NCBI GenBank assembly: GCA_001783215.1
Contig: MFRA01000005.1
Location: forward strand, 146,824-210,823
DNA: 64,000 nt
Reading direction: 5' to 3'
Origin: Candidatus Magasanikbacteria bacterium RIFOXYD1_FULL_40_23
GTDB taxonomy: Bacteria; Patescibacteriota; Patescibacteriia; Magasanikbacterales; GWA2-37-8
Translations under genes and position numbers: made by a program
In this document: one piece after another, positions 27,604 through 43,564 of the stretch
Layout: every line of letters begins with the position of its first letter
Position numbering within the stretch: the first letter of the stretch is position 1
Notes under the pieces: generated by a model
Databases searched by the model: none
What the model was told of the DNA's origin: nothing
The model's input: the letters and a program-made list of their open reading frames with translations, nothing else

Positions 27604-28101
27604 ATGGACCAACTATCTAGGGTGCCTGATTCTGTAAAGTCAAAAGAACCAATTCCGATGTTACGAATTCCAATAGAATCGGATGTGCATGCAGAAGTTG
27701 GTGGAGAAATAGATCAATCAAAAGCAGAGGATGTAGAAGGTAAAAGAGAATCTACTTTGGACAACAAAGTAGAAAGCACGGTTAATTCATTTTCTGCGTA
27801 TATTGCCAGAATGGCCAAAGAGCGCGGCGGGCAAATGCCCGTAGCCGAGGCTTCCTCTATTTACTCCAATGATTTATTACCAGGTCTTCGTGGAAAAAGT
27901 TTTTCTGAAGGAGAGGAACACGACTTAGAACAAAAAATGGGTGGAACTGGATTTTATGACACAGGAAAAACTATTACAATTCCAACTAATGAAGGTGAAG
28001 CAACCTTTAATTTAGTGGCAGTTTCCAAGGCAGGAAAATCAAAACTTACGTTAGAGCCAGGTGCGTATAGTGACATTGCGCAAAGAATAGCCGGCAATTA
28101 A
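27604..28101 (+). CDS. hypothetical protein
   Basis: 165-aa ORF with no motif. Tightly followed by the next ORF. Confidence 0.4.
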   Translation: MDQLSRVPDSVKSKEPIPMLRIPIESDVHAEVGGEIDQSKAEDVEGKRESTLDNKVESTVNSFSAYIARMAKERGGQMPVAEASSIYSNDLLPGLRGKSFSEGEEHDLEQKMGGTGFYDTGKTITIPTNEGEATFNLVAVSKAGKSKLTLEPGAYSDIAQRIAGN

Positions 28102-28115
28102 TTTTTTATATTTAT

Positions 28116-28709
28116 ATGGGCGTAGATCATAGAGGTGGAGGGCCAGAACGAAGAAATCAACAAAATTATTTTGATAGCGCAAATACATTTAATGAAATTA
28201 TTAATTTAATTTCAAAAGCACCAGAAGGATCTTTGAAAGATAGTAAAGGCAATGAAATAGACGCCACAATAATAGTTGGCGTTAAAAGAGTTTTTGAAAA
28301 TAAAGATTTGGTAGGAAGTGATTTGATAAACTATATTACTAGAAATAATGGGCTTCGAGAAGCGGTGGTGCGAGCGATGGCGCCAAATTTTGATATGGAA
28401 AATAATTTAAATAATGTGTGGGTAGGGCTAAAAGCTGCCGAGCACCAAAACAATGAACTAAAAGGAGTAAATGGTTCAGGCGGGAAGCAGCTGTGCCTAA
28501 TGACAGACAGTAGTGGTAACCCTGTAGATATAGGGATCTACATTCAAGTTTTGGAGCAAATAATGGATTTCTTGAAAAAGAACCCTACAGATAAGATTCC
28601 AAATGAAAATCAATACTTTGCCCATTTTACAAGCAAATATGGCTTGCGCGGGGCGATACAAAGAGGTGTGGCTACCCTAACTGGTGATACTGGCCGTTTT
28701 ACGTACTAG
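28116..28709 (+). CDS. hypothetical protein
   Basis: 197-aa ORF with no motif. Confidence 0.4.
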   Translation: MGVDHRGGGPERRNQQNYFDSANTFNEIINLISKAPEGSLKDSKGNEIDATIIVGVKRVFENKDLVGSDLINYITRNNGLREAVVRAMAPNFDMENNLNNVWVGLKAAEHQNNELKGVNGSGGKQLCLMTDSSGNPVDIGIYIQVLEQIMDFLKKNPTDKIPNENQYFAHFTSKYGLRGAIQRGVATLTGDTGRFTY

Positions 28710-29347: not shown

Positions 29348-29776
29348 ATGCCAACAATTAACCAACTTATCCGCAAAGGCAGAACTAGTAAAGTAAAGAA
29401 AAGCAAAGTTCCTGCTTTGCAGTTTACCGTAGACAATTTACACAGACGCAAAACTATTTTTGCAAAGGGATCCTCTTTTAAGAGAGGTGTTTGTACCAAG
29501 GTATATACAACCACTCCAAAAAAACCAAACTCCGCTTTGCGCAAAGTAGCCAAAGTACGTTTGAGTAATGGTATGGAAGTAATTGCTTATATCCCAGGTG
29601 AAGGACACAATTTGCAAGAACACTCAATCGTGTTGCTTCGCGGTGGTCGTGTAAAAGACTTGCCAGGTGTACGTTACCACATTGTACGCGGTGTTTATGA
29701 TGCTCAAGGCGTAGAAGGAAGACGCAAAGGCCGCAGTTTGTATGGAGCAAAAAGACCAAAGGCAGCGAAAAAATAG
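29348..29776 (+). CDS. rpsL: 30S ribosomal protein S12
   Basis: [12 protein letters not shown]...; 142 aa. Confidence 0.95.
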
Positions 29777-29813: not shown

Positions 29814-30290
29814 ATGCGCGGTGGAAAAAAAGATTATCAACGAGTTATTGCTCCAGATCCAAAATACGGCAGTGTGTCACTAGCCAAATTTATCAACCAT
29901 ATAATGATGGGTGGTAAAAAAACAACTGCACAAACAATTGTTTACGATGCTTTTGATAAAATTGCTGAAGCTAAAAAAGACCCGATGAAAACTTTTGAAG
30001 AGGCTTTAAAAACTGTTCAACCTCAAGTAGAAGTAAGATCTCGTAGAGTAGGTGGTGCCAATTACCAGGTACCTATGCCAGTAAGTGCAAGCAGACAAAA
30101 TGCTCTTACTTTCCGCTGGATTGTAGAGGCTGCTCGCAACAAAAAAGGTTCAGCTATGGCCGACAGATTGGCCACAGTTCTTCTTGATAGTGCTCAAGGC
30201 GTTGGTGATGCGATCAAAAAACGCGATGACGTACACAGAATGGCAGAAGCCAACAAGGCCTTTGCTCACTTTGCTAGATTTGCGAAATAG
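29814..30290 (+). CDS. rpsG: 30S ribosomal protein S7
   Basis: 158 aa with the S7 family sequence ([12 protein letters not shown]...). Confidence 0.95.
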
Positions 30291-30400: not shown

Positions 30401-32476
30401 ATGCCTCGAGAATTCCCCATAGAAAAAACTCGTAATATCGGTATCATGGCTCACATTGATGCTGGTAAAACTACAACTTCCGAACGCGTACTTTTTTATA
30501 CCGGTAAAAAACATAAAATCGGTGAAGTGCACGAAGGTGAAGCAACTATGGACTGGATGGAACAAGAAAAAGAACGCGGTATTACTATTACTTCCGCTGC
30601 TACCACTTGTTTTTGGAAAGGACATCGTATAAACCTTATCGACACTCCTGGTCACGTAGACTTTACTGTAGAAGTAGAGCGTTCTTTGCGTGTTCTAGAC
30701 GGAGCCGTAGCTGTGTTTGACGCTTCTCAGGGTGTAGAACCTCAATCCGAAACTGTATGGCACCAAGCTGACAAATATAACGTACCTCGCGTTGCTTTTG
30801 TAAATAAAATGGACAAACTCGGAGCAGATTTCTATATGAGTCTTGCTTCTGTTCAAGAAAGATTATCTGTAAATGCAGTAGCTGTTCAATTGCCAATCGG
30901 ACAAGACAGCTCTTTTTCTGGTTTAGTAGATATTATTCAAGAAAAAGCTTTCAAATTTGAAGGTGCAAAAGGAGAAAATATTATTGAGATGCCAGTTCCA
31001 GAAGATATGAAAGAATTGGTAGCTACTCATCGTGCAAAATTAATGGAAAAAGTTGCCGAAGCCAATGACACTTTAATGGAAAAATATTTGGCCGGACAAT
31101 CTTTTAGTATTGATGAATTAAAAACTGGTATTCGCAGCATGGTAATCAAGGGTCAAATTTACCCAGTATTGTGCGGTTCCGCTTTGGCTAACATTGGTGT
31201 TCAGCTTATGCTTGATGCTGTTGTTGACTACTTACCATCCCCAAGTGATTTGCCTCCAATCGCTGGTTTAAATCCAGATACCAATGCCGAAGAAACACGT
31301 CTTGCTTTGGACAAAGAACCTTTCTGTGCTTTGGCCTTCAAGATTGCTACCGATCCATTTGTAGGTAAGCTTATCTTTTTCCGCGTTTACTCTGGTACAG
31401 TTTCTGCAGGTACTTATGTTTATAACTCTAGTAATGGTGAAAAAGAACGCCTTGGTCGTATCGTGCGTTTGCATGCTAACCAACGCGAAGATGTATCCGA
31501 AGTTTATGCTGGAGAAATTGCAGCTGCTATAGGTCTTAAAGATGTAAAAACAGGTGATACTCTTTGTGATGAAGATAAGCCGATGGTTATGTATCGCCCA
31601 ACTTTTGCTGAGCCTGTAATCTCTATGGCGATTGAGCCAAAGACCAAAGCTGACCAAGAAAAAATTGGTATGGCTTTGCAGAAATTGGCTGAAGAAGATC
31701 CAACTTTCCGCGTTCATACCGATGAAGAAACTTTGCAAACAATTATTGCCGGTATGGGTGAGTTGCATTTGGATATTCTGGTAGATCGCATGCGCCGTGA
31801 ATTTAAAGTAGAAGCCAATGTTGGTAAACCTCAGGTAGCTTACAAAGAAACTATCAAAATTTCTGCCGAAGCTGAAGGTAAATATATCAAACAGTCTGGT
31901 GGTAAGGGTCAGTACGGCCATTGTTGGATAAAAGTAGAGCCAAGAGAGCAAGGCGCAGGTTATGAATTTGAAGATGACACCAAAGGTGGCTCTATTCCAA
32001 AAGAATTTATTCCAGCTGTAGAAAAAGGTGTAAAAGCCTCTCTTACTCGTGGTATCCAGGCTGGTTACCCAGTGGTAGACGTAAAGGTTACTGTTTACGA
32101 TGGTTCTTACCACGAAGTAGACTCTTCCGAAATGTCTTTCAAAATGGCCGGATCTATGGCCTTCCAAGCTGCTTGTAAAAAAGCCAATCCAATAATCATG
32201 GAACCTATCATGAAGGTAGAAGTGACTACTCCGGAAGCTTATATGGGTGATGTGATCGGTGATTTGAATTCAAAGCGCGGACAAATTCAAGAAATGTTTG
32301 ATCGCGGTCAAGTAAAAGTTATCAAAGCAATCGTGCCTCTAGCTAGCATGTTTGGCTACGCTACTACTCTACGCAGTGTTAGTCAGGGACGTGCCAACTA
32401 CTCTATGGAATTTGGCCACTATGCCGAGGTGCCTCGCAATGTAGCCGAAACTATTATTGCTGGAACACAGAAGTAG
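30401..32476 (+). CDS. fusA: elongation factor G
   Basis: G-domain motifs AHIDAGKTT and DTPGHVDF. 691 aa. Confidence 0.95.
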
Positions 32477-32488
32477 TTTTACACTATT

Positions 32489-32534
32489 AAAACAAATACA
32501 CCATCTTCATATGAAGGTGGTGTATTTGTTTTAA
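32489..32534 (+). terminator. strong rho-independent terminator after fusA
   Basis: aaacaaatacaccatcttcatatgaaggtggtgtatttgtttt; the stem is about 14 bp. Confidence 0.8.
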
Positions 32535-32563
32535 TTATCCACATAGGCTCAATAGTGAATTTA

Positions 32564-32572
32564 TGGTATAAT
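32564..32572 (+). promoter_or_regulatory. extended -10 promoter (TGgTATAAT)
   Basis: ttatggtataat, ~30 nt upstream of the MKREKFF start of the giant ORF. Confidence 0.35.
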
Positions 32573-32602
32573 TCTTTCGTAAAGAAACCCTCTTTTATTC
32601 TT

Positions 32603-35600
32603 ATGAAAAGGGAAAAATTTTTTAGTTTGTATCCTGCTCTTATCAAAAAAAGATTAAAGAATTTGTTTTTGTTACTTAATTTCAAACATCGCTCCCTCCA
32701 CTTATTTAAAAAAAGACAATTTCACGCTACGGTGGCCGGTCTTTTGCTTGTAGTTATTTTGGTAAATGTATTTCAGCCTTGGTCAGACGAAATTGCTCAA
32801 GGTGCAACTTATACTTTTGTACAAAGCAGTTGGAGTGGGGGAGTTAGCGCTTCGGTTCCTCTACATCCTACCAACCAAACTAGCTGGACAAATTTTTCTA
32901 CTAGCACAAACACCTTCACTACAGGTACTACCACAGTTACCATAGCCAGTACCACCTATAGCTCTACTGATGACGGTACCTTTACCTCTACCGGTAGTGC
33001 AACCGGGGGTGGTTTTAGCAATGGTGTTACCTCTACTGTGGCTGTCTCTGGTAGTGGCGCATCCGCTGTAATTAAATTATCAGGTGGTGTAACTACGATA
33101 AATCGGGTTACTGCCACTTCTTCAAATACTGGTACGAGCGCTAACTTTCACGGTGCTTCTCAGATGATTGGTGCTTCAGGGTCAGACTACTTATATTTTG
33201 TAGAAGCTGCCAATGAGGGGAGAGCGTTACGCCGCTATTCCATTTCCGGAAATTCGTGGACAGATTTAGCGGCTTATACATACGCTTATTTTGGTGCTCA
33301 ATTACTTTGGAATGGTACCGACGATTATATGTATCTAGCAGAAGGTCAAAGTAATGCCTTTACTCGTTACTCTATCTCCGGAAATTCGTGGTCATCTATG
33401 GCGAATATACCAGCTGCCTTGCCTACAAGCATTACTCAAACTGCGGCCCTGCGCTATGGAACAGAAGATTATATATATCTTTGGAGAGGTGCCGGACAGA
33501 CAGCATTTTATCGTTATTCAATTAGTGGCGATAGTTGGAGTACCCTCGATGCATTACCAGCTGCGGCTGGCGTTGGTATTCAAGCTATCAGAGATGCAGA
33601 TAGCAATTTTATTTATGTTGCTAGCGGGGTCAGTACAAATTTTTATCGTTACAATATATCTGCAAATACAACTTCTGCGATGACAGCTATTCCAGCATCC
33701 CTTACCGGTATACAGTCTTACGCTCTCCATGATGAAGGTAGTGATTATATTTATCTTTTAGCAAATGATGGTTTTTATAGATATTCTATTTCCGGTAATT
33801 CATGGTCGACTATGGCTAGCGCCGCGTCGGTTAATCCAGATTTTGGTTCAACATTAATCCATAGCGCAGGAGAAGATGTTATATATGTAGCAGGTGATTG
33901 GGACTGTTGTTCAATTGTAAAATTATGGGGATATTCTATCGCAGGTGATTCTTGGACATCATATCATACAATTACAGCTCATTCGGGTGGTTATGGTTCT
34001 CCAAATAAAACAGCTTACCGAAGAGCGGGTGATGACTATTTTTACTTTTTCACTGCCAACCAAGATAATGAGTTGTTTAAATTTACAATAAGCCAAACCG
34101 TTTATAACTCTTCTGGTAATTTTACCTCTGCTGCTATGGATTTGGGTGTTGCCAAAATGAATTCTTTTTCATGGAGCAGTACCACGCCTTCGGGGGTAGG
34201 TAGCAATTCCATCCAATTCCAGCTTGCGGCCAATAATGATAATAGTACATGGAGTTTTGTGGGGCCGGACGGTACTAGCGGAACATATTTTACAACCAAT
34301 GGCACGACGGTTTTTCCATCTTCATTGCAACAAAATCTTCGCTATTGGAAATACAAAGCGTATTTGAGTACAGCCGACACTAGTGTAACCCCAGTGTTAA
34401 ACAGTGTTACTTTTGGTTACTCTTCTTATGCTGCCACAAGCTCGCTTATTTCTTCTATATATGATACAGCCGATCCAACCAATGTAGTGGCCAGTATTGC
34501 TTGGACTGAATATGAGCCAACTAGCACCACAGTCAAATTTCAATTACGAACAGGCGCTAGTTCGTCTAGTGTGGCTTCTGCTACCTGGATGGGTCCGGAC
34601 GGTACAAATTCTTCATACTTTACCACTTTTGGTGGCGAGACAACTACTTCCACCATGCGTGATGGCTCAAGCGATCAGTATTTCCAGTACAAAGTATTTT
34701 TAGAAACAACAAACTCTTCATACACTCCAACACTTTCGAGTGTTACAGTTACCTATGTAGTTAATGCTGCTCCAGAGATTCAAAATGTTTTGGCTAGCCA
34801 GAGCGCTACTGGCACAGTCTCTATTAGCTATCAGGCACGAGACTCAGACACAGATACAGGTACAGTAAACCCTGGCTATGTTAGTTCCACCTTTGAATAT
34901 TTAGATGCAAACGGTGCTTATCAAACTATCCCTGCAGGCCAACTTTCGGCTGGAGCAAATAGTGGTATAGCGGTAGATGATGTAAATTGGACTACAAATA
35001 CTGTTACTTGGACACCGGCATCAGGTTTAAGTGTGGCTGCTAGTAGAATTAGAGTAACAATAAATGATAACGAAGCAGCTAATAACACCACTTCTACTAT
35101 TTCAGATACTTTCCAAATAGATAGCGTTTCACCAGCTTCGGGTGCGATAGTTGTAGATGGATCTCAAGTGCCGGCTGTTGTTACCCTTACAGCCACCGAT
35201 AGTTCTTCTTTGTACATGAAAGTTTCGGAGAATAGCACTTTGTCGGATGTTTCTAGTTGGTCCGCTCTTACTGCTACCACCTCTATTACACTTACTGCCA
35301 ACCCAGCAACAGTTTATGTACAATTTAAAGACGCTTTTAACAATACGTCTAGTATTTTTAGTGCTACTACTCCTAACACGCCAAGCAGTACGATAGTTCA
35401 AGATATTTCTAACGTTTTAAACGGGGCTACTGACTACCGTTTGTTTGTGGCTTGGAGAGTAATTACTACTCCAGTGCCAGGTTTTGCAAATTATAGAATT
35501 TATAGATCTTTAGATCAATCTGATTGGACTCCGATTGCTACCAACACTTCTATAAACGACAATTATACTGCCGACAGCTCTATATCTTCTAACACACTTT

Positions 35601-38600
35601 ATTACTATAAAGTAAAATCCACTGACTCTTCCGGTAATGTTTCTGTATTTTCTTCTATCGTAAATGCTCGCGCTAACGGGGATCAAGATGCGGGTGAAGG
35701 TGGTGGTGGTACGGGAATAGAAAGCGCGCCCGTTATTACATCTGTGGCAACATCATCTGTTTCGCCAACTTCAATTACCATCACTTGGAATACGGATGTT
35801 TTATCAAATTCCGTAGTTGGTTTTTCAACTATTCTTGGTAATTTTACCGACAATGTATTATCCGTAGGTGGTATGTTTGATAACCCTAGTTCTGTAGGCG
35901 CGCATACTGTAGTTTTAGGTGGTCTCACTCCAAATACTACTTATTATTTTAATGTAAAATCCACTGCTGCTGGTGGCGCGTCTGCCTCTTCTTCGGATGG
36001 TGGTAATGGTTTTATTGTTAGAACCTTAAATGGTCCTGTTATTTCCGGTGTTTCGGCTCCAGAAGTTTATAATACTTTTGCCAGAGTAGTTTGGACCACT
36101 TCGGAAAACGCAAATAGTTATGTAATTTATTCTACTTCCACCGATTTATCTAACCCTATAGTTACTAGTACTATTGTAACGTTTGGGACTTCGCACGACC
36201 TAACCCTAACCGGTTTAACGGCTGGTACAAATTATTATTATTATGTTCAGTCGGCGAATGTTGGGATGATTACGACAACCGATAAAAACATAGTAAATGG
36301 TATTCCAGAATACTTTAGTTTGGCGACTACTTTAGATGTTACCGCTCCTACAATTTCTTCTATTGCCACCACTAGCGTCGGTAATAATTCTGCCAACGTT
36401 ACTTGGGTTACAAACGAAAATGCAGATTCGCAGATAGCTTATGGTACTACGACTAATTATGGCACCACCACTACTTTAGATTCTACTTTTACGGCCCAAC
36501 ACTTGGTTACGCTTTCTGGTTTAGCTTCTTCCACTGTCTATCATTTTAAAATTTTATCACGAGATAGAAATGATAATTTAGCAGAATCCTCCGATCAAAT
36601 TTTCGAAACAGCTGCAGCTGCCGATACAATCGCTCCGACAATATCTTCGGTTGCCACTTCAAGTGTTACTCTTACTAGCTTTACAGTTACTTGGTCTACC
36701 AACGAAGTCGGTTCTTCTATCGTGGAGTATGGCACAAACACGTCTTCTTACAATAGTTTAGCTGGTTCAAATACAGATTCAGTTACGTCTCATTCGGTGA
36801 CTGTAAGCAGTCTAAGTGGTAATGCTACTTATTATTTTCGAGTTAGATCAGCAGATTCGGCTGGTAATTCTGCCACAGATAGCAACGGCGGTGCTGGCTG
36901 GGAAGTTAGAACAGTTGCCGACACTACCGCTCCAACCATTTCCAATATTAGTACGCTGGTAAACAATACAACTACCCAAATCACTTGGACCACCAACGAA
37001 GCGGCTAATTCCGAAATTAATTATGGTTCAACTTCAAGCTCTCTTAACACAACTGCTTCCAGCTCAACTTTGCAGACTAACCACGCCATTACCATTACCG
37101 GTTTAACAGCCGACACTACTTATTATTTCCGAGTTAGATCTACAGACGCTTCAAGCAATGTTGCGACCGACGATAATGGCGGCGCTGCTTATAGCTTTAC
37201 CACATTGCTTACTCCGGGTGGTACAACTATTATTATTACCGGTGGTTCTAGCGCTCAGCGTGGAGATAGAGAGCCCCCTATAATTAGCAATATTGAAATA
37301 GTAAATGTTACAGCCAATTCGGCTAGCGTGACTTGGAGAACCAGCGAAGACGGAAATTCTTTGGTTAGATTTGGTGTCAGCGAAACTTATGGTACTTTAG
37401 TGGGTAATGATTTGGAATTATTAACTTCAAATCACACTGTTAAGATGTCTAATTTAAGAGCTGCTCAAACCTATCATTTGAGAGCTATTACCTATGATGA
37501 AGCAGGTAATAGAACCGAATCAAATGATCAAGCGTTTACCACTTTAAATATTGATGGAACAGAAGCTCCGCCTAGTACTAGTACAGCAGAGGAGATTATA
37601 GAGGAAGAAAAAGAAATACAATCTCCACAAACAGAACAATTTATATCGGATGCTTTAAAAAAAGCTTCTAGTGAGTCCTTAGAAAAATTCTTGAGGGATA
37701 TAGCTGCCAATCCATTGCTCAAAGATATTCCTGAAGATAAATTTATCCAGGCACTGCTTGAAATGACAAGTCGTGTAATTGAACCTCCAACTATTGTGGG
37801 TATTAAACCAACAGTAGATGTTCAAGGAACTACTGCAATTATCAAATGGTCTACAGACAAGAAATCTTCTTCAGAAATAAATTATGCTAAAGAAAGTGAA
37901 TACAAACCTAACGACTCTACCCCATACACCAACGCAGCTGTTAGCCCGGATGAATTTAGTGTAAATCACAGCGTAAAATTAACTGGTCTTGATCCGGGTG
38001 TTCTTTATCACTTCAAAGTTATATCCAAAGGCCTTATTGGTGCACCAGCTATGAGTGGTGATTATACATTCCAAACCACCGGTGATTTACCAGTTATTTC
38101 CGACATAAGAGTTACCAGACCAAAAGATTTACAATCATCTATCGTTGTAAATTGGAAGACAAATGTTTCTACTGCTGGTAGCGTAGAATATAGAAACGCT
38201 AAATCTGGTCAATCTCTAACTCAAGGTGATTCAGCGCTGCTCATAAATCACGAAGTCACGTTGAAGGGTCTTGAGGGCGGTGTAAATTATACTTTGGTAC
38301 TTAAAGGTAAAGATGAGTTTAGTAATGAAGTATCCAGTCTTCCTATAACTTTCTCTACTACTTTAGATAAGGCCGAACCAACCATATCCAAACTTTCATC
38401 AGAATCCACATTGTATCCAGGCAAGGATTCCAAAGTTCAAACTATTATTTCTTGGGAAACAGACGAACCAGCAACCTCTCAGGTTTTCTACCAAGAAGGT
38501 GCGGCTACAGACAAAGTTACAGCCCTTCCATTAGACAGTTCCTTAAACACTCGTCATATTGTGGTAGTAACCAAGTTTAAACCAGGCACAGTTTATAAGT

Positions 38601-38749
38601 ATTGGGTAGAATCCAAAGATTTGGCCGGTAATGCTGGCAAATCGGAAGTGTTCTCCATCCTGACGCCTCAAGAAAAAGAAACCATTGTTGATATAATTAT
38701 TAACAATTTCCAATCAGTATTTGGTTGGACCAAGAATATAGGCATCTAG
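32603..38749 (+). CDS. giant membrane-anchored cell-surface protein (~2050 aa). It has an N-terminal TM anchor, six YRYSISGNSW beta-propeller-like repeats and many fibronectin-III / purple-acid-phosphatase-N-like repeats.
   Basis: TM segment ATVAGLLLVVILVNVF. Repeats include YRYSISGNSWTDL, TRYSISGNSWSSM, YRYSISGDSWSTL, YRYSISGNSWSTM and WGYSIAGDSWTSY. At least 12 repeats of the type 'TAPTISS.ATTSV...AN.TW.TNE.A.S...YGTT..Y' are present. The protein is Thr/Ser-rich. Confidence 0.7.
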   Translation: MKREKFFSLYPALIKKRLKNLFLLLNFKHRSLHLFKKRQFHATVAGLLLVVILVNVFQPWSDEIAQGATYTFVQSSWSGGVSASVPLHPTNQTSWTNFSTSTNTFTTGTTTVTIASTTYSSTDDGTFTSTGSATGGGFSNGVTSTVAVSGSGASAVIKLSGGVTTINRVTATSSNTGTSANFHGASQMIGASGSDYLYFVEAANEGRALRRYSISGNSWTDLAAYTYAYFGAQLLWNGTDDYMYLAEGQSNAFTRYSISGNSWSSMANIPAALPTSITQTAALRYGTEDYIYLWRGAGQTAFYRYSISGDSWSTLDALPAAAGVGIQAIRDADSNFIYVASGVSTNFYRYNISANTTSAMTAIPASLTGIQSYALHDEGSDYIYLLANDGFYRYSISGNSWSTMASAASVNPDFGSTLIHSAGEDVIYVAGDWDCCSIVKLWGYSIAGDSWTSYHTITAHSGGYGSPNKTAYRRAGDDYFYFFTANQDNELFKFTISQTVYNSSGNFTSAAMDLGVAKMNSFSWSSTTPSGVGSNSIQFQLAANNDNSTWSFVGPDGTSGTYFTTNGTTVFPSSLQQNLRYWKYKAYLSTADTSVTPVLNSVTFGYSSYAATSSLISSIYDTADPTNVVASIAWTEYEPTSTTVKFQLRTGASSSSVASATWMGPDGTNSSYFTTFGGETTTSTMRDGSSDQYFQYKVFLETTNSSYTPTLSSVTVTYVVNAAPEIQNVLASQSATGTVSISYQARDSDTDTGTVNPGYVSSTFEYLDANGAYQTIPAGQLSAGANSGIAVDDVNWTTNTVTWTPASGLSVAASRIRVTINDNEAANNTTSTISDTFQIDSVSPASGAIVVDGSQVPAVVTLTATDSSSLYMKVSENSTLSDVSSWSALTATTSITLTANPATVYVQFKDAFNNTSSIFSATTPNTPSSTIVQDISNVLNGATDYRLFVAWRVITTPVPGFANYRIYRSLDQSDWTPIATNTSINDNYTADSSISSNTLYYYKVKSTDSSGNVSVFSSIVNARANGDQDAGEGGGGTGIESAPVITSVATSSVSPTSITITWNTDVLSNSVVGFSTILGNFTDNVLSVGGMFDNPSSVGAHTVVLGGLTPNTTYYFNVKSTAAGGASASSSDGGNGFIVRTLNGPVISGVSAPEVYNTFARVVWTTSENANSYVIYSTSTDLSNPIVTSTIVTFGTSHDLTLTGLTAGTNYYYYVQSANVGMITTTDKNIVNGIPEYFSLATTLDVTAPTISSIATTSVGNNSANVTWVTNENADSQIAYGTTTNYGTTTTLDSTFTAQHLVTLSGLASSTVYHFKILSRDRNDNLAESSDQIFETAAAADTIAPTISSVATSSVTLTSFTVTWSTNEVGSSIVEYGTNTSSYNSLAGSNTDSVTSHSVTVSSLSGNATYYFRVRSADSAGNSATDSNGGAGWEVRTVADTTAPTISNISTLVNNTTTQITWTTNEAANSEINYGSTSSSLNTTASSSTLQTNHAITITGLTADTTYYFRVRSTDASSNVATDDNGGAAYSFTTLLTPGGTTIIITGGSSAQRGDREPPIISNIEIVNVTANSASVTWRTSEDGNSLVRFGVSETYGTLVGNDLELLTSNHTVKMSNLRAAQTYHLRAITYDEAGNRTESNDQAFTTLNIDGTEAPPSTSTAEEIIEEEKEIQSPQTEQFISDALKKASSESLEKFLRDIAANPLLKDIPEDKFIQALLEMTSRVIEPPTIVGIKPTVDVQGTTAIIKWSTDKKSSSEINYAKESEYKPNDSTPYTNAAVSPDEFSVNHSVKLTGLDPGVLYHFKVISKGLIGAPAMSGDYTFQTTGDLPVISDIRVTRPKDLQSSIVVNWKTNVSTAGSVEYRNAKSGQSLTQGDSALLINHEVTLKGLEGGVNYTLVLKGKDEFSNEVSSLPITFSTTLDKAEPTISKLSSESTLYPGKDSKVQTIISWETDEPATSQVFYQEGAATDKVTALPLDSSLNTRHIVVVTKFKPGTVYKYWVESKDLAGNAGKSEVFSILTPQEKETIVDIIINNFQSVFGWTKNIGI

Positions 38750-38790
38750 GATATATATATGGCTTACCTATATATAAGCACTGTCCCAGT

Positions 38791-38860
38791 GCTTGAAATT
38801 CCGTCGCTCGCCCCAGATGAACACAAGCTTTCGCCTGGGGGCTCGCTAGGAATTATAAAA
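38791..38860 (+). promoter_or_regulatory. R1 leader element (variant) upstream of the ABC ATPase
   Basis: gcttgaaattccgtcgctcgccccagatgaacacaagctttcgcctgggggctcgctaggaattataaaa. Confidence 0.5.
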
Positions 38861-38868
38861 TCTTTACC

Positions 38869-40218
38869 ATGGAGCCAATTATTAAGACAGAAAATATCAA
38901 AGTTATATATAATAAGGGGCAAGATAATGAATATATCGCTCTTAATGATATTAGTATAGAGGTGTTTCCGGAAGAGTATTCGATTTTTTTCGGTCCTTCC
39001 GGATGCGGAAAATCAACTCTCCTCTATACGATTCTAGGACTTCAAAAAATAAGTGAAGGGAAATTATATATAAAAGGCCGAGAAAGTTCTTCTTTTTCGG
39101 AAGCAGACAAGAGCAACCTTGATTCCCAGTTCTTTGGTATCGTGTTCCAGAACTTCAATCTCATTTACTCTCTCAACGTTATAGACAACATCGCCCTACC
39201 ACAGGTGTTTTTGGAATCAAAAAAAGAAGTACGTTTGGCAAAATCCAAAACATTATTAGCACGTTTTGGTATAGAAACCAGAGCTCACAATTTGCCGGCA
39301 TCTCTCTCTGGTGGGCAGCAGCAAAGAGTAGCTATTTGTCGTGCGCTTGTAAACGATCCGCTTGTGTTGCTCGCCGATGAGCCGGTAGGTAACTTGGATA
39401 GTGAATCAGCCAGAGTGGTAATGGAATCAATTTATGATATCAACAAGAAAGATAAAAAAACTGTAATTTTGGTTACGCACGATCATACGTTTCTTCCCTA
39501 TGCCGATCGTATTTACTACTTCAAGGATGCTAAGTTAGAAAAAGTTGTGCAAAATACTCATCCTAAAAAGATGATTGCCGGCGCAAAAAATTTACAACAA
39601 GAAGAAGCCAGTGAAACCACCGGGTCCGGCACAGGTGACTTTACGCCTTTTGGAGAATTGGAAAAAATGGCGCGCGCGCATCATTTTATGACAGTGCCGC
39701 AGCTTAAAGCTTGGAGCATTACCAACTATCTAACAGATGAGTTTACTGTTAATCAGATAGAAAGACTGGAAAAGTTCATGGAAGAAATGTTGGCGGGCAA
39801 ACTTAGCGAACACGCATTTTTTGAGAAGTTAAATGCGCCGTTTAGTGAAGGTGGTGTGGGTTTGTATCAGGGCACAGCTATTAGGTTCACCCAAAAAATT
39901 TCTTCTATCCTGCGAGAAGTTGGTGCTTTTTTGCAAAATTTAAAAAATATTAAAGACCCACAAGAAAGTCTAAAAATGGTAGATATCTTAAGAAAATTTT
40001 TGTTGGAAGAATACCATGGTAGTTTAAGCCAAGAACAAATTCAGCGTTTGGAAAAGGGGATAGGTGAACGTTTGGCCGGAAGCATGAATGATCTTCAGTT
40101 TAGTGAACTATTAGACAAATCTGTTTCGGAAGGAGGCATAGGTTTAAATACATTAACAGCCGAGCATTTGTCCGAAAGGCTAGAAATAATTCTCGCTCAA
40201 GCCTATGAAAGCAACTGA
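38869..40218 (+). CDS. ABC transporter ATP-binding protein (MacB/FtsE-like) with a C-terminal tandem ~62-aa repeat domain
   Basis: Walker [10 protein letters not shown], signature [15 protein letters not shown] and Walker B LLADEP. The C-terminal repeats are ...[38 protein letters not shown]... and ...[39 protein letters not shown]... Confidence 0.8.
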
Positions 40219-41401
40219 TCTATTTTCATTATCAACCAGAATGTTTCGCACCAATCCATCCCGTACGTGGCTTACTATTTTGGGTATTAGCGTGGGGGTA
40301 GGGGCAGTGCTATTTTTGGTTTCTCTTGGGTATGGTTTACAAAATGTTATTTTGCAAAAAATAGTTTTTAATCAAGCACTTCTTAGTCTGCTTATTACTC
40401 CAAGTACAGACCTGATTGTGTTAGACGACAAGACCATAGCGGAAATTTCTCAGATTCAAAATGTTACCGACGTGACTGCTATGGCTAGATTTACGGGTCA
40501 GCTATCTATGGGTGGGGTAAATGGTACTGTAGATATTAGAACCGCTAACCCTTCATATTTTGCATATTCTGGTACAGAGGCCAAATACGGCAAGTTGTAC
40601 GAAGATGCAGATCAAAACCAGATATTGGTATCTGAAGCAGTGTTAAAGCTGTTTGGGCTTGAAGACCCAAATGAAATTCTGGGTAAACAGATTAACGTGA
40701 AAATTTTTACGCATAACGGCGCTGCCGACTCCGAGCTAGAAATTACAGAGATCCCAGTAGCCTATACAGTAAAGGGTATAATAGATGACAGCCAAGAGAG
40801 CTACGCTTTTCTTTCTCTCAAAGAAGCTCTAAATTATGTAAAAATCAATCAGTATGAGCAGGCGCGGGTAAAAGTAAATGATAGTAAAGATTTGGATTTA
40901 GTAAAAGAAGAAGTTATAGCCAGGGGATTTCAGACCCAATCACTATCGGAAACAATCGAACAGGCCAATAAGATCTTTAATGTTATCCAGATAGTTTTGG
41001 GTGCATTCGGTGCAGTCGCGCTTGCAGTTTCGGCCATCGGCATGTTTAACACCATGACGGTTACCCTGCTGGAACGTACAAATGAAATTGGTATTATGCG
41101 TGCTTTGGGCGCAGACAAGAGTAATTTACGCAATTTATTTTTAACGGAATCTGTAATAATCGGATTTTTCGGTGGGTTGGTAGGTACGGCTATTGGTATT
41201 GTGGGTGGTCAAATTTTTAATCTGGTTATAAATCAGTTGGCTGCCAAGTTTGGTGGTGCAAAGACAAGCTTGTTTGTATATCCAGCTTCATTTTTATTTA
41301 CAATTATTGGGCTTTCTGTATTTATTGGTTTTTTATCTGGCATATTTCCGGCCCGTCGCGCTGCGGCCATGGATCCGCTTGAAGCGTTGAGATACAAATA
41401 G
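40205..41401 (+). CDS. ABC transporter permease, FtsX/MacB family
   Basis: An N-terminal TM helix, a large extracytoplasmic domain and three C-terminal TM helices (FtsX-like). It overlaps the upstream ATPase gene. Confidence 0.75.
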   Translation: MKATDLFSLSTRMFRTNPSRTWLTILGISVGVGAVLFLVSLGYGLQNVILQKIVFNQALLSLLITPSTDLIVLDDKTIAEISQIQNVTDVTAMARFTGQLSMGGVNGTVDIRTANPSYFAYSGTEAKYGKLYEDADQNQILVSEAVLKLFGLEDPNEILGKQINVKIFTHNGAADSELEITEIPVAYTVKGIIDDSQESYAFLSLKEALNYVKINQYEQARVKVNDSKDLDLVKEEVIARGFQTQSLSETIEQANKIFNVIQIVLGAFGAVALAVSAIGMFNTMTVTLLERTNEIGIMRALGADKSNLRNLFLTESVIIGFFGGLVGTAIGIVGGQIFNLVINQLAAKFGGAKTSLFVYPASFLFTIIGLSVFIGFLSGIFPARRAAAMDPLEALRYK

Positions 41402-41404
41402 CCC

Positions 41405-41512
41405 TTGACAAATAATATAGTTGTGATATAATGTATTCAGCTTAGGAAGTGGTGAGCAATCATTCGCTTTCAGCAATACAGGGCTCTCAATGCGAGAGCC
41501 TTTTTGCTTTTT
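41405..41512 (+). ncRNA. promoter-to-terminator unit; candidate ~75-nt sRNA
   Basis: TTGACA, a 16-nt spacer and TATAAT at 41405-41432. Terminator gggctctcaatgcgagagcctttttgcttttt at 41481-41512. No ORF. The transcript contains CATTCGCT, as the R2 family does. Confidence 0.4.
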
Positions 41513-41518
41513 ACAGGG

Positions 41519-41546
41519 TTGACTTAAATTTTTTTAATGGTAAAAT
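41519..41546 (+). promoter_or_regulatory. sigma70-like promoter for the 41578 ORF
   Basis: TTGACT, a 16-nt spacer, then TAAAAT. Confidence 0.45.
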
Positions 41547-41577
41547 ACGTTCAACCTTTTTCATTTTATGATTTTAT

Positions 41578-42033
41578 ATGCAAAATTCTCAGATAAACAG
41601 AGTGGTTAGATTGGTAAGGAGAACTGGAGACAAAGCAATTATAATGGATAACGAATCGGACGCTATCATGATGCTCATGGATTTGGGAGCATACGAAAAA
41701 ATATTAGACCGTTCCCAAGGAGTAGAAAATTTAACAGAAGAAGAGTTGATGGAAAAGATAAATCGAGATGTGGCTGTATGGCGTGCCTATAACGACAAAG
41801 AACGCATAGAGACCTTTGATAAGGTATTAGAAAAACCGGTAGCTAATCAACCCGTTGAGTCAGCTAGAGCTACGGAGCAAAGTAGAGTAGAGCCAGAAAT
41901 GGCTAAAACTACAGTAAAAGAAGCAGTTCAGCCGACCCCAGAATATAGTAGATATGCCGGCACCGAAGAATCCGCAAGCGATATAATTGCCGAAGAAGGA
42001 GAAGAAAAGTTCTATTTAGAGCCGGTTGAGTAG
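41578..42033 (+). CDS. hypothetical acidic protein
   Basis: 151 aa with an E/D-rich C-terminus. No motif recognised. Confidence 0.45.
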   Translation: MQNSQINRVVRLVRRTGDKAIIMDNESDAIMMLMDLGAYEKILDRSQGVENLTEEELMEKINRDVAVWRAYNDKERIETFDKVLEKPVANQPVESARATEQSRVEPEMAKTTVKEAVQPTPEYSRYAGTEESASDIIAEEGEEKFYLEPVE

Positions 42034-42107
42034 GGTACGAATTAGTATAAAAAAGTGAAAAAAGAGGGGTGTTTTTTGTTCTAAATAGCTGTCCACAATT
42101 TACCCCC

Positions 42108-42136
42108 TTGCATTTTTTTTAATTGTCTGCTACAAT
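42108..42136 (+). promoter_or_regulatory. sigma70-like promoter of the tuf leader
   Basis: TTGCAT, a 17-nt spacer, then TACAAT. Confidence 0.5.
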
Positions 42137-42201
42137 GCTCACGCTATCTAGATTTAGTGTTTAGTTAGCGAAAATTTGTCAAAATTAGTAATTTTTAAAA
42201 T

Positions 42202-42248
42202 AAGCCCGACCATGTGTTGGTAACACATGGCATCTGGGCGGGCTTTTT
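42202..42248 (+). terminator. R4 element copy 1: a terminator- or attenuator-like compound hairpin in the tuf leader
   Basis: aagcccgaccatgtgttggtaacacatggcatctgggcgggcttttt. Three more hairpins follow before the tuf ATG. Confidence 0.45.
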
Positions 42249-42376
42249 AGACAAGGTATCGGCTCCGCCGATAACATAATAAATTATCCCGCTTTGCGGG
42301 TTTCTAATAAACATAAACGGCTGGAGAAAAATCTATCACCGACCACTCGGTGTAGTGCCGTCTAAGTATTAAGCTT

Positions 42377-43564
42377 ATGGCTGAGTTTGTACGAAACAAG
42401 CCACACGTAAACATTGGTACTATTGGTCACGTTGACCATGGTAAAACGACTTTAACAGCCGCTATTTTGTCGGTTTTAAGAAGTCGTGGTGGAGCTGCCT
42501 CCAATAAAGGCGTAGATGATTTGGATAAATCCCCAGAGTCCAAAGCTCGTGGTATTACCATCTCTACTGCTCACGTAGAATACGAAACAGACAACAGACA
42601 CTACGCTCACGTAGACTGTCCTGGCCACGCTGACTATGTTAAAAACATGATCACTGGTGCCGCTCAAATGGATGGTGCTATTTTAGTTGTTTCTGCTGCC
42701 GATGGTCCGATGCCTCAAACTAGAGAACACATCTTGCTTGCTCGTCAGGTAGGTGTGCCTTATATCGTAGTTTTCTTAAACAAAGTAGACCAAGTTACTG
42801 ATCCAGAATTGATCGACTTGGTAGAAGCTGAAGTTCGTGATTTATTGAAGAAATATGGTTTCCCTGGTGACACTACTACAATAATCCGAGGTTCTGCTTT
42901 GCAAGCTTTGCAAAACCCTACCGATGAAGCTGCAGCAAAACCAATTATGGATTTGATGGCTGCCTGTGACGCAATTCCTCAACCTGCACGTGATGTTGAT
43001 AAGCCTTTCTTAATGCCTATCGAAGATGTATTCTCTATTGAAGGACGCGGTACAGTAGTTACCGGTCGTTTGGAGAGAGGTGTTATTCACTTGAATGACG
43101 AAGCTTCTATCGTAGGTATGAGTGATGCTACTGGCAAGACAATTATTACTGGTATTGAAATGTTTAATAAGCAGTTAAAAGAAGGTCAAGCTGGTGACAA
43201 CGTAGGTTTGTTGCTTCGCGGTACCAAAAAAGAAGAAGTAGAACGCGGTATGGTTATTGCCAAACCGGGCAGTATTACTCCTCACACCGAATTTGAAGCT
43301 CAGGTATATATCTTGACCAAAGAAGAAGGTGGCAGACACAAGCCATTCTTCAAAGGCTATAAGCCACAATTCTATATCCGCACTACTGATGTAACTGGAG
43401 AAGTAGAATTACCAGCAGCCACTGAAATGGTTATGCCTGGAGACACTATTGGATTTAATGTTAAATTGATTTCTCCTGTAGCCATGGAAGAAAAGATGAA
43501 TTTTGCTATCCGCGAGGGTGGTAAAACCGTAGGTTCTGGTGTAGTAACTAAAATTATAAAATAA
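42377..43564 (+). CDS. tuf: elongation factor Tu
   Basis: [13 protein letters not shown] and DCPGHADY motifs. 395 aa. Confidence 0.95.

Follow-up and report, generated by a model that had tools for sequence, protein, structure and literature searches.

ATP-binding cassette (ABC) systems of type VII include MacB, LolCDE/LolDF, FtsEX, YtrEF, YbbAP, BceAB, and HrtBA. The solved systems MacB, LolCDE, and FtsEX work at the outer face of the membrane and have no transmembrane path for a substrate. Several known members serve an extracytoplasmic partner protein, as FtsEX does with its hydrolase activators, and the title of a PDB entry shows YbbAP in complex with TesA. Here we describe a gene cassette with a type VII ABC pair in a 64-kb stretch of patescibacterial DNA (the window; all coordinates given for it below are window positions). 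The cassette lies within the 9.9 kb that separates fusA from tuf and consists of a gene for a giant surface protein followed by genes for an ABC ATPase and a MacB-type permease. These three genes form one cassette that is conserved across the Patescibacteria-labeled records searched, and the ATPase carries a C-terminal tail domain that is new, with neither a curated family nor a solved relative. The fusA-tuf stretch as a whole is a mosaic of three unrelated things: this cassette, a small RNA (sRNA) gene, and an acidic-protein gene together with the tuf promoter and leader. The features of the cassette are the following.

32564-32572, plus strand: candidate extended -10 promoter element (TGgTATAAT) for the giant gene, proposed from inspection of the sequence.
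32603-38749, plus strand: giant surface protein, 2048 aa from the ATG at 32603.
36800-38749, plus strand: conserved C-terminal module of the giant, from alignments with homologues and a metagenome scan.
38869-39558, plus strand: ABC nucleotide-binding domain (NBD) of the MacB/LolD/FtsE class, ATPase residues 1 to 230.
39652-40203, plus strand: tandem all-alpha C-terminal domain of the ATPase, residues 262 to 445.
40205-41401, plus strand: MacB-type permease (Pfam MacB_PCD, E = 5.7e-19; FtsX, E = 1.3e-19).

Linkage of the three genes was assessed from both ends. For the ATPase-first comparison, eight members of the ATPase family located on long contigs were examined. The permease followed the ATPase in all eight contexts (in one, L004, a 95-aa open reading frame [ORF] lies in between), and a large Fn3/PAP-N protein of 661 to 2454 aa was encoded immediately upstream of the ATPase, on the same strand, in seven, with L004 as the exception. 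The remaining neighbors, which included tRNA synthetases, FtsZ, MreB, and SecDF, changed between contexts, and no division genes were consistently adjacent to the cassette. For the giant-first comparison, we identified 422 metagenome relatives of the C-terminal module and fetched 80 loci, 60 of which had at least 1.5 kb of downstream sequence. A family NBD began within 600 nt downstream of the giant, on the same strand, in 48 of these 60 loci, and all but one of the 48 (47/48) also encoded the tail domain; in 5 more of the 60, the ATPase was found 0.8 to 2.4 kb downstream. A permease was located no more than 2.5 kb away in 38 of 48 testable loci, and in L028 it was found upstream of the giant instead. 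Four of the 60 loci begin inside the giant gene, with the upstream side out of view. In L063, which contains the giant module, the 7 kb to each side are free of ABC genes, and L094 has none in its 1.5 kb of downstream sequence, its upstream side being cut off. From the two sets of counts it follows that the trio is co-conserved in both directions, and strongly so, as would be expected of the module that an initial reading of the window's sequence (here called the first-pass annotation) had proposed. The layout shows some variation: a small ORF or about 0.3 to 0.8 kb of spacing separates ATPase from permease in L004 (11332-11619), L054, L067, L068, and L081, and there is no permease within 4 to 5 kb in L051, L052, and L056.

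These counts bear on the possibility that the ABC pair is a housekeeping type VII system (an FtsEX- or YtrEF-like wall regulator, or an efflux system for antimicrobial peptides or lipids) that is co-located with the giant without acting on it. Among solved permeases, Bacillus subtilis YtrF is the nearest, FtsE and FtsX models match as well, such pairs are routinely annotated as ftsEX in published Patescibacteria genome papers, and L004 and L016 have the ABC pair without a giant. However, the FtsX models score only 46 to 55 against cut-offs of 225 to 255, the extracytoplasmic domain is of the large MacB_PCD type, and the two-way linkage persists at 35 to 50% protein identity while all other neighbors change. 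Since the linkage holds over such distances, it would be hard to explain in genomes of this kind without functional coupling within the trio. Because L004, L016, and L063 break the linkage, simple co-location is still conceivable, but we judge it unlikely.

The giant ORF spans 32555-38749 if counted from a GTG codon; the ATG at 32603 is the probable start of the gene. The resulting size agrees with the ~2050 aa of the first-pass annotation, and the upstream promoter proposed there corresponds to the candidate element at 32564-32572, which was read by eye. The protein has an isoelectric point (pI) of 4.7 and begins with a basic tail followed by one hydrophobic segment at residues 38 to 62. Self-built hidden Markov models (HMMs) delineated seven Kelch-like blades at residues 194 to 511, so that the propeller repeats reported earlier are real but number seven rather than six, and nine full plus two partial Fn3/PAP-N repeats, for which the earlier figure of at least 12 was slightly generous. 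Pfam matched Pur_ac_phosph_N nine times and fn3 in five stretches and detected no hydrolase domain in the giant.

Conservation among the giants is confined to both ends, and the middle differs by lineage (Kelch, FG-GAP, or other Fn3 arrays). At the N-terminal end, homologous giants have small residues and then a ATYTWVQTDWSGG..HPxNQTGW motif past the hydrophobic segment; the corresponding conserved motif in the window protein is ATYTFVQSSWSGG..HPTNQTSW. Because small residues occupy positions -1 and -3 ahead of ATYTWVQTDWSGG, which looks like a conserved mature N terminus, the hydrophobic segment might be removed as a signal peptide instead of serving as an anchor. The earlier description of the giant as membrane anchored is thus uncertain and was not supported. 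No lipobox cysteine was present in the N terminus. The C-terminal module consists, in order, of three Fn3 domains, an acidic linker, a helical mini-domain of ~55 aa, three more Fn3 domains, and an amphipathic tail, which reads ILTPQEKETIVDIIINNFQSVFGWTKNIGI in the window and has the consensus ILTPxxxETIxDIIIxNFExxFGWxKxxG[IF] across homologues. By tblastn, identity between the last ~650 aa of the giant and the protein encoded just before the ATPase was 34 to 40% in six distant loci and 59% in L001. The C-terminal module is the part of the giant that is co-inherited with the ABC genes. The 119 nt separating the giant gene from the ATPase gene are structured (z = -3.9) and lack a clear U-tract. 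GC skew is slightly negative across the giant gene (34001-38000), where GC content is still 0.40 to 0.41; the skew is probably an effect of Thr/Ser-rich codon usage and not a sign of foreign origin.

The ATPase gene (38869-40218, plus strand) encodes an ABC_tran domain at residues 25 to 173 (Pfam E = 1.6e-28). Foldseek matched the NBD to the solved NBDs of MacB, BceA, MJ0796, LolD, YbbA, FtsE, YtrE, and HrtA with target TM-scores (TMt) of 0.87 to 0.95, E values of ~1e-21 to 1e-17, and 30 to 37% identity, and the top NCBIfam matches were DarD, LolD, MacB, DevA, and FtsE, all under their cut-offs. When the model of the full-length ATPase was used, all Foldseek matches ended at about residue 230. 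The tail that lies beyond consists of two ~90-aa units, each closing with a GG[VA]G[LF] loop and a long helix. The two repeats are 40% identical to each other over 57 aa (E = 8e-12), confirming the duplication seen earlier, but the structural unit measures about 85 to 95 aa rather than the ~62 aa then assigned to it. AlphaFold2 (AF2) predicted the tail alone as all alpha with nine helices (predicted local distance difference test score [pLDDT], 84). In the full-length prediction, the tail had a pLDDT of 80 to 96, linker residues 235 to 257 fell below 50, and the predicted TM-score (pTM) was 0.57. Because the NBD and the tail are each modeled confidently while the linker is disordered and the pTM is 0.57, the tail is predicted to be a module tethered by a disordered linker of ~25 aa.

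The tail domain had no consistent match in Pfam or NCBIfam and no credible match among PDB sequences, and a Foldseek comparison of its model with the PDB gave no match (best E = 1.9). ATPase residues 230 to 449 corresponded to no curated family or solved fold, including TOBE/MalK-RD and NIL/MetN-C2. The failure of the first reading to recognize the repeat thus holds in Pfam, NCBIfam, PDB sequences, and Foldseek searches of the PDB. We also considered a helix-hairpin-helix reading of the GG[VA]G[LF]...TA motif; its spacing is unlike that of classic GhG-x3-A, and neither an HhH family nor an HhH structure matched, so it was kept as a lead only. An exhaustive HMMER search with clustering at 50% identity returned at least 206 cluster representatives of the tail family with E values up to 1e-3, 97 of them with E values up to 1e-10. 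Members are mostly ATPases of 420 to 450 aa with the domain at about residues 245 to 435. A profile of the full-length ATPase gave more than 6000 matches; query coverage was 97 to 100% in all of the top 120, which, where named, were annotated as ABC transporter ATP-binding proteins of Patescibacteria. Some family ATPases have further extensions besides the tandem tail, long and lysine rich at the N terminus in P0108 and P0111 and of low complexity, rich in Pro, Lys, Ser, and Thr, at the C terminus in P0043 and P0080.

The start of the permease gene overlaps the ATPase stop codon by 14 nt. Pfam assigned MacB_PCD to permease residues 21 to 238 and FtsX to residues 267 to 391, both above gathering scores. 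A hydrophobicity/transmembrane (TM) scan placed four TM segments at residues 20 to 50, 256 to 289, 311 to 342, and 354 to 383, leaving an extracytoplasmic domain of ~205 aa between TM1 and TM2. The nearest solved chains by sequence were YtrF, MacB, Spr0695, and LolF/C/E. Pfam, TM scan, sequence matches, Foldseek, and NCBIfam together place both the permease and the NBD in the type VII class, and the earlier assignment of a MacB/FtsE-like ATPase with an FtsX-type permease agrees with the Pfam, TM scan, and Foldseek results. By analogy with the solved systems, we infer that this pair would work by mechanotransmission, with no transmembrane path for a substrate.

In topology the permease is fully LolC/E-like, and it can be aligned over its whole length with the LolC, LolF, and LolE chains; the pair might accordingly be read as a LolCDE-like extractor or exporter. 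The ABC proteins would then recognize the giant's N-terminal hydrophobic segment and the adjoining ATYTWVQTDWSGG motif and extract the segment from the membrane; the giant would be released to the wall, an S-layer, or a host cell, and the pair would complete secretion instead of actuating a mounted fiber. Consistent with this, NCBIfam lolCE and LolD models rank among the best matches, the conserved juxtamembrane motif with its preceding small residues is common to the giants, and no adaptor or further partner is encoded in the cassette. However, the scores are far under the equivalog cut-offs (lolCE, 86 versus 362; LolD, 178 versus 308), only one gene encodes a permease, a LolA-like acceptor is missing, the giant has no lipobox cysteine, and an extractor would be unnecessary if signal peptidase I cleaves the segment. 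Moreover, extraction leaves unexplained why the C-terminal 650 aa are the best-conserved part of the giant. We consider this explanation improbable.

The explanation that best accounts for the observations jointly, and which we hold with moderate confidence, is that the region is a mosaic and that the ABC pair is a type VII mechanotransducer dedicated to the giant. Of this, the mosaic make-up of the region, the domain identities, the membrane topology, the novelty of the tail domain, and the reciprocal linkage of the three genes are firm. The dedicated role is suggested by synteny and family membership only, the latter because solved MacB, LolCDE, and FtsEX act on the outer membrane face without conducting a substrate. 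In this model, the cassette would have landed between fusA and the next gene in a Magasanikbacteria-like lineage. The giant would be a Sec-targeted surface protein with a variable propeller/Fn3 middle and conserved ends, and a permease homodimer would form the mechanotransducer together with the ATPase, no substrate passing through the membrane, as in the solved relatives. Cytoplasmic ATP hydrolysis would move the permease's ~205-aa extracytoplasmic domain, and this domain would act on the giant, most plausibly on its conserved ends, either the C-terminal ~650-aa module or the N-terminal signal or anchor, so that the surface fiber is assembled, anchored, released, or actuated. The tandem helical tail, cytoplasmic and flexibly tethered, may have a regulatory or scaffolding role and gate the cycle of the ATPase. 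The first-pass annotation had proposed a dedicated FtsEX/LolCDE-like module for the giant; this is reasonable for the trio, where synteny points to it, but does not extend to the sRNA, the acidic protein, or the tuf leader.

Several points weigh against a dedicated mechanotransducer. The evidence for a physical or functional interaction is indirect, and the linkage fits "acts on the giant" and "co-expressed" alike. The ABC pair occurs without an adjacent giant in L004 and L016, and in L063 the giant module stands without ABC genes in the 7 kb on each side. In an extended fiber anchored at its N terminus, the conserved C-terminal module would sit far from the membrane permease, and the cytoplasmic tail domain cannot touch the extracellular part of the giant. 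Finally, the window covers only 64 kb, and a separate canonical FtsEX may be encoded elsewhere in the genome. A bolder version, which we regard as doubtful, is that the cassette encodes an undescribed surface machine in which a giant propeller/Fn3 fiber would be mounted on, or passed on by, a MacB-type mechanotransducer, in which the new cytoplasmic tandem-helix tail would gate the ATPase as a sensor domain, and in which ATP would power attachment to, or release from, a host or substrate. The term "episymbiont," which was applied earlier to the organism, derives only from taxonomic placement (Patescibacteria; closest named record, Candidatus Magasanikbacteria).

The str genes and the other features of the fusA-tuf stretch are as follows.

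29348-29776, plus strand: rpsL (Pfam).
29814-30290, plus strand: rpsG (Pfam).
30401-32476, plus strand: fusA (Pfam).
32486-32534, plus strand: intrinsic-terminator-like hairpin closing the rpsL-rpsG-fusA unit, with a 23-bp perfect stem.
41405-41510, plus strand: sRNA gene with a promoter, a ~72-nt two-hairpin transcript, and an intrinsic terminator, from folding and relatives.
41519-41546, plus strand: the acidic gene's own promoter, TTGACT-N16-TGgTAAAAT, from comparison with relatives.
41578-42033, plus strand: acidic 151-aa protein gene (pI 4.6), kept in 11 loci.
42089-42135, plus strand: conserved tuf promoter block (TGTCCACAA box, TTGCAT, N17, TACAAT), from all relatives aligned by eye.
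42317-42361, plus strand: conserved 45-nt stem-loop just 5' of the tuf Shine-Dalgarno sequence, near-identical in ten related loci.
42377-43564, plus strand: tuf (Pfam).
From 43611, plus strand: rpsJ, then the S10 operon (Pfam).

ORF calls and Pfam place all genes of the str region on the plus strand, from carA/carB through the S10 operon. The upstream order is carA, carB, a UvrD-like helicase, two unknown ORFs, and then rpsL. Between fusA and tuf lie, in order, the terminator hairpin, the giant, the ABC ATPase, the permease, the sRNA unit, and the acidic gene, which confirms the gene order and the interruption that had been described. The hairpin after fusA has a folding free energy of -30.6 kcal/mol (z = -8.7) and is followed by UUUUAAUU; with its 23-bp perfect stem, it agrees with the strong terminator noted earlier. 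The two ORFs between the helicase and rpsL (27604-28709) encode 165 and 197 aa and have no Pfam match. In L001 and L014, rpsL begins only ~125 nt after the helicase and the two ORFs are missing, and the block looks like a second lineage-specific insertion beside the str genes.

Six relatives (L001, L010, L011, L015, L017, and L022) keep the order fusA-giant-ATPase-permease-acidic-tuf; L012 is partial, and L020 starts inside the giant, with fusA out of view. The ATPase NBD is 77 to 86% identical to that of the window among relatives that keep this order, and the closest named relative record is L011, a Candidatus Magasanikbacteria metagenome-assembled genome (MAG). In L016 the order is fusA-ATPase-permease-Fic-MFS-acidic-tuf and the giant is absent; the segment at 6081-8415 of L016, between permease and acidic gene, encodes a Fic-domain-like protein and, on the opposite strand, an MFS transporter. 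The cassette lies between fusA and tuf only in a Magasanikbacteria-like lineage and is found in unrelated contexts in every more distant genome. The str-operon position, which the first reading had stressed, is thus lineage specific and incidental. Several public MAG titles are at odds with the content of the records (L010, L012, L013, L015, and L016, Gammaproteobacteria; L017, Udaeobacter; L009, Dehalococcoidia). In L010, L013, L015, L016, and L017, where tuf is in view, it is 90 to 93% identical to the window gene and the gene order is Patescibacteria-like, and L009 shares a gene neighborhood with the Patescibacteria-like locus L003. The oddly titled bins (L009, L010, L012, L013, and L015 to L017) are probably mislabeled.

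The interruption of the str genes could also be due to an island that this genome alone acquired recently, as a mobile element or by horizontal transfer, and the different contexts of the cassette in different lineages, together with the slightly negative GC skew over the giant gene, might be read in this way. However, at 0.39 to 0.41 the GC content is like that of the neighboring DNA, and Thr/Ser-rich coding probably accounts for the skew. Neither an integrase nor a transposase nor flanking repeats were detected, and at least six related records share the order fusA-cassette-acidic-tuf. Because the composition matches and the order is conserved in related genomes, we reject this explanation as very improbable.

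The sRNA is an independent gene outside the cassette. Its promoter is a 12/12 match to sigma-70 elements with an extended -10, and the sRNA transcript is structured (z = -3.7). L017 (9840-9934, the same position) and L018 (4925-5037, away from ABC genes) each have an orthologue with a promoter of its own, and compensatory changes affect 4 of 25 pairs, in both hairpins, among the three sequences. Because L018 carries the sRNA away from any ABC genes, the sRNA is not part of the module: the structured promoter-terminator unit described earlier was upheld, and its membership in a surface-protein module was not. Neither the sRNA unit nor the tuf leader matched Rfam at the gathering and E-value thresholds. 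A reading of the sRNA as signal recognition particle (SRP) RNA-like was dropped, as no Rfam SRP model matched.

A genome scan with the acidic protein gave ten loci. The full promoter of the acidic gene is present in seven of the ten other loci compared (L001, L010, L011, L012, L014, L015, and L017), and L013, L016, and L018 retain the -10 element TGGTAAGAT alone. The gene order is fusA-acidic-tuf, with no cassette, in L014 and acidic-tuf in L013, L018, and the distant patescibacterium L019. The protein has a weakly Phd/YefM-like N-terminal domain, a variable acidic middle, and an invariant C-terminal EEKFYLEPVE. PhdYeFM (PF02604) matched weakly in 3 of 11 orthologues (best E = 0.007) and not in the window protein, and there is no toxin-like ORF between the acidic gene and tuf. 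Because L014 has fusA-acidic-tuf without the trio, the acidic gene does not belong to the cassette, and neither it nor the tuf leader is part of a surface-protein module, as had been suggested. Gene order in the relatives marks the acidic gene and the tuf leader as residents of this site, which would predate the arrival of the cassette.

The tuf leader is 343 nt long and structured (z = -4.2), as expected from the multi-hairpin leader noted in the first reading. The 45-nt stem-loop may be a leader element for a highly expressed gene; its variation is too small for strong covariation. Three GC-rich hairpins at 42203-42300, two of them terminator-like, are absent from all relatives, and L010 and L011 have a different palindrome at this position.

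Patescibacteria (the candidate phyla radiation [CPR]) account for a large share of bacterial diversity. To our knowledge, those cultured so far all live attached to other cells, and we know of little on how they build and control surface contacts. An energy-driven adhesion device would, if true, be of interest in organisms whose host-contact mechanisms are largely unknown. In Patescibacteria genome papers, large Fn3 surface proteins are listed separately from ftsEX-like ABC transporters; here, the two are joined as one tightly linked cassette. In the literature searched, neither the cassette nor the tail domain was described, which is not proof of absence. The tail domain, with its at least 206 clusters at 50% identity, is a new family to define, and the cassette is usable as a marker in comparative work and in studies of expression. 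If true, the pairing of a type VII ABC motor with a giant extracellular partner would lengthen the short list of known partners of such transporters. The interrupted str operon is of minor interest, as a lineage-specific landing site.

Compared with the canonical str operon (rpsL-rpsG-fusA-tuf), the locus keeps the gene order and orientation, followed by rpsJ and the S10 operon. It differs in that fusA has its own strong terminator and tuf its own conserved promoter, a small acidic gene always lies between fusA and tuf in this lineage, and the 8.8-kb cassette is additionally inserted there in some members. The cassette itself resembles the type 1 secretion systems of giant adhesins (LapA/LapBCE and SiiE) in having a giant repetitive surface protein, here with a conserved extreme C terminus, beside a dedicated ABC system. 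Unlike in those systems, the ABC proteins are of the MacB class rather than a 6-TM exporter, there is no membrane-fusion or outer-membrane component, and RTX repeats are absent from the giant, whose N-terminal region contains a Sec-type hydrophobic segment. Pfam gave no ABC_membrane, HlyD, or RTX matches in the window genes or in the eight ATPase-first contexts, and no HlyD/membrane-fusion protein (MFP) adaptor gene was found in the window region or in any of these contexts. Unlike in MacAB-TolC, NBD and permease are encoded unfused (38869-40218 and 40205-41401), there is no MacA, and the MacB model scores 166 against a cut-off of 966. The cassette differs from LolCDE in its below-equivalog scores, its one permease gene, and an adjacent protein without a lipobox.

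The likeness to FtsEX with coiled-coil activators (PcsB, CwlO, EnvC, and RipC) is that a cytoplasmic ATPase is thought to control an extracellular protein via the outer domain of the permease; by analogy, the helical mini-domain between the giant's Fn3 domains could play the docking role. The cassette differs from FtsEX in its MacB_PCD-type rather than small FtsX extracytoplasmic domain, in its NCBIfam scores (FtsE, 159 versus a cut-off of 265; FtsX_Gpos, 55.5 versus 225; FtsX_Gneg, 46 versus 255), in a giant that has no Pfam hydrolase domain, and in having no consistently nearby division genes. With the type VII systems as a whole, the cassette shares an NBD of the same structural class and a permease with four TM segments, a large TM1-TM2 extracytoplasmic domain, and an FtsX-type C-terminal bundle; as in LolCDE, FtsEX, and YtrEF, ATPase and permease are separate, translationally coupled genes. 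It departs from them in operating without MacA/TolC, LolA, or a second permease, in having as its genetic partner a ~2000-aa propeller/Fn3 protein rather than a hydrolase, lipoprotein, adaptor, or small molecule, and in the ~190-aa tandem helical C terminus of its ATPase, which is a feature of this cassette and of no solved or curated member.

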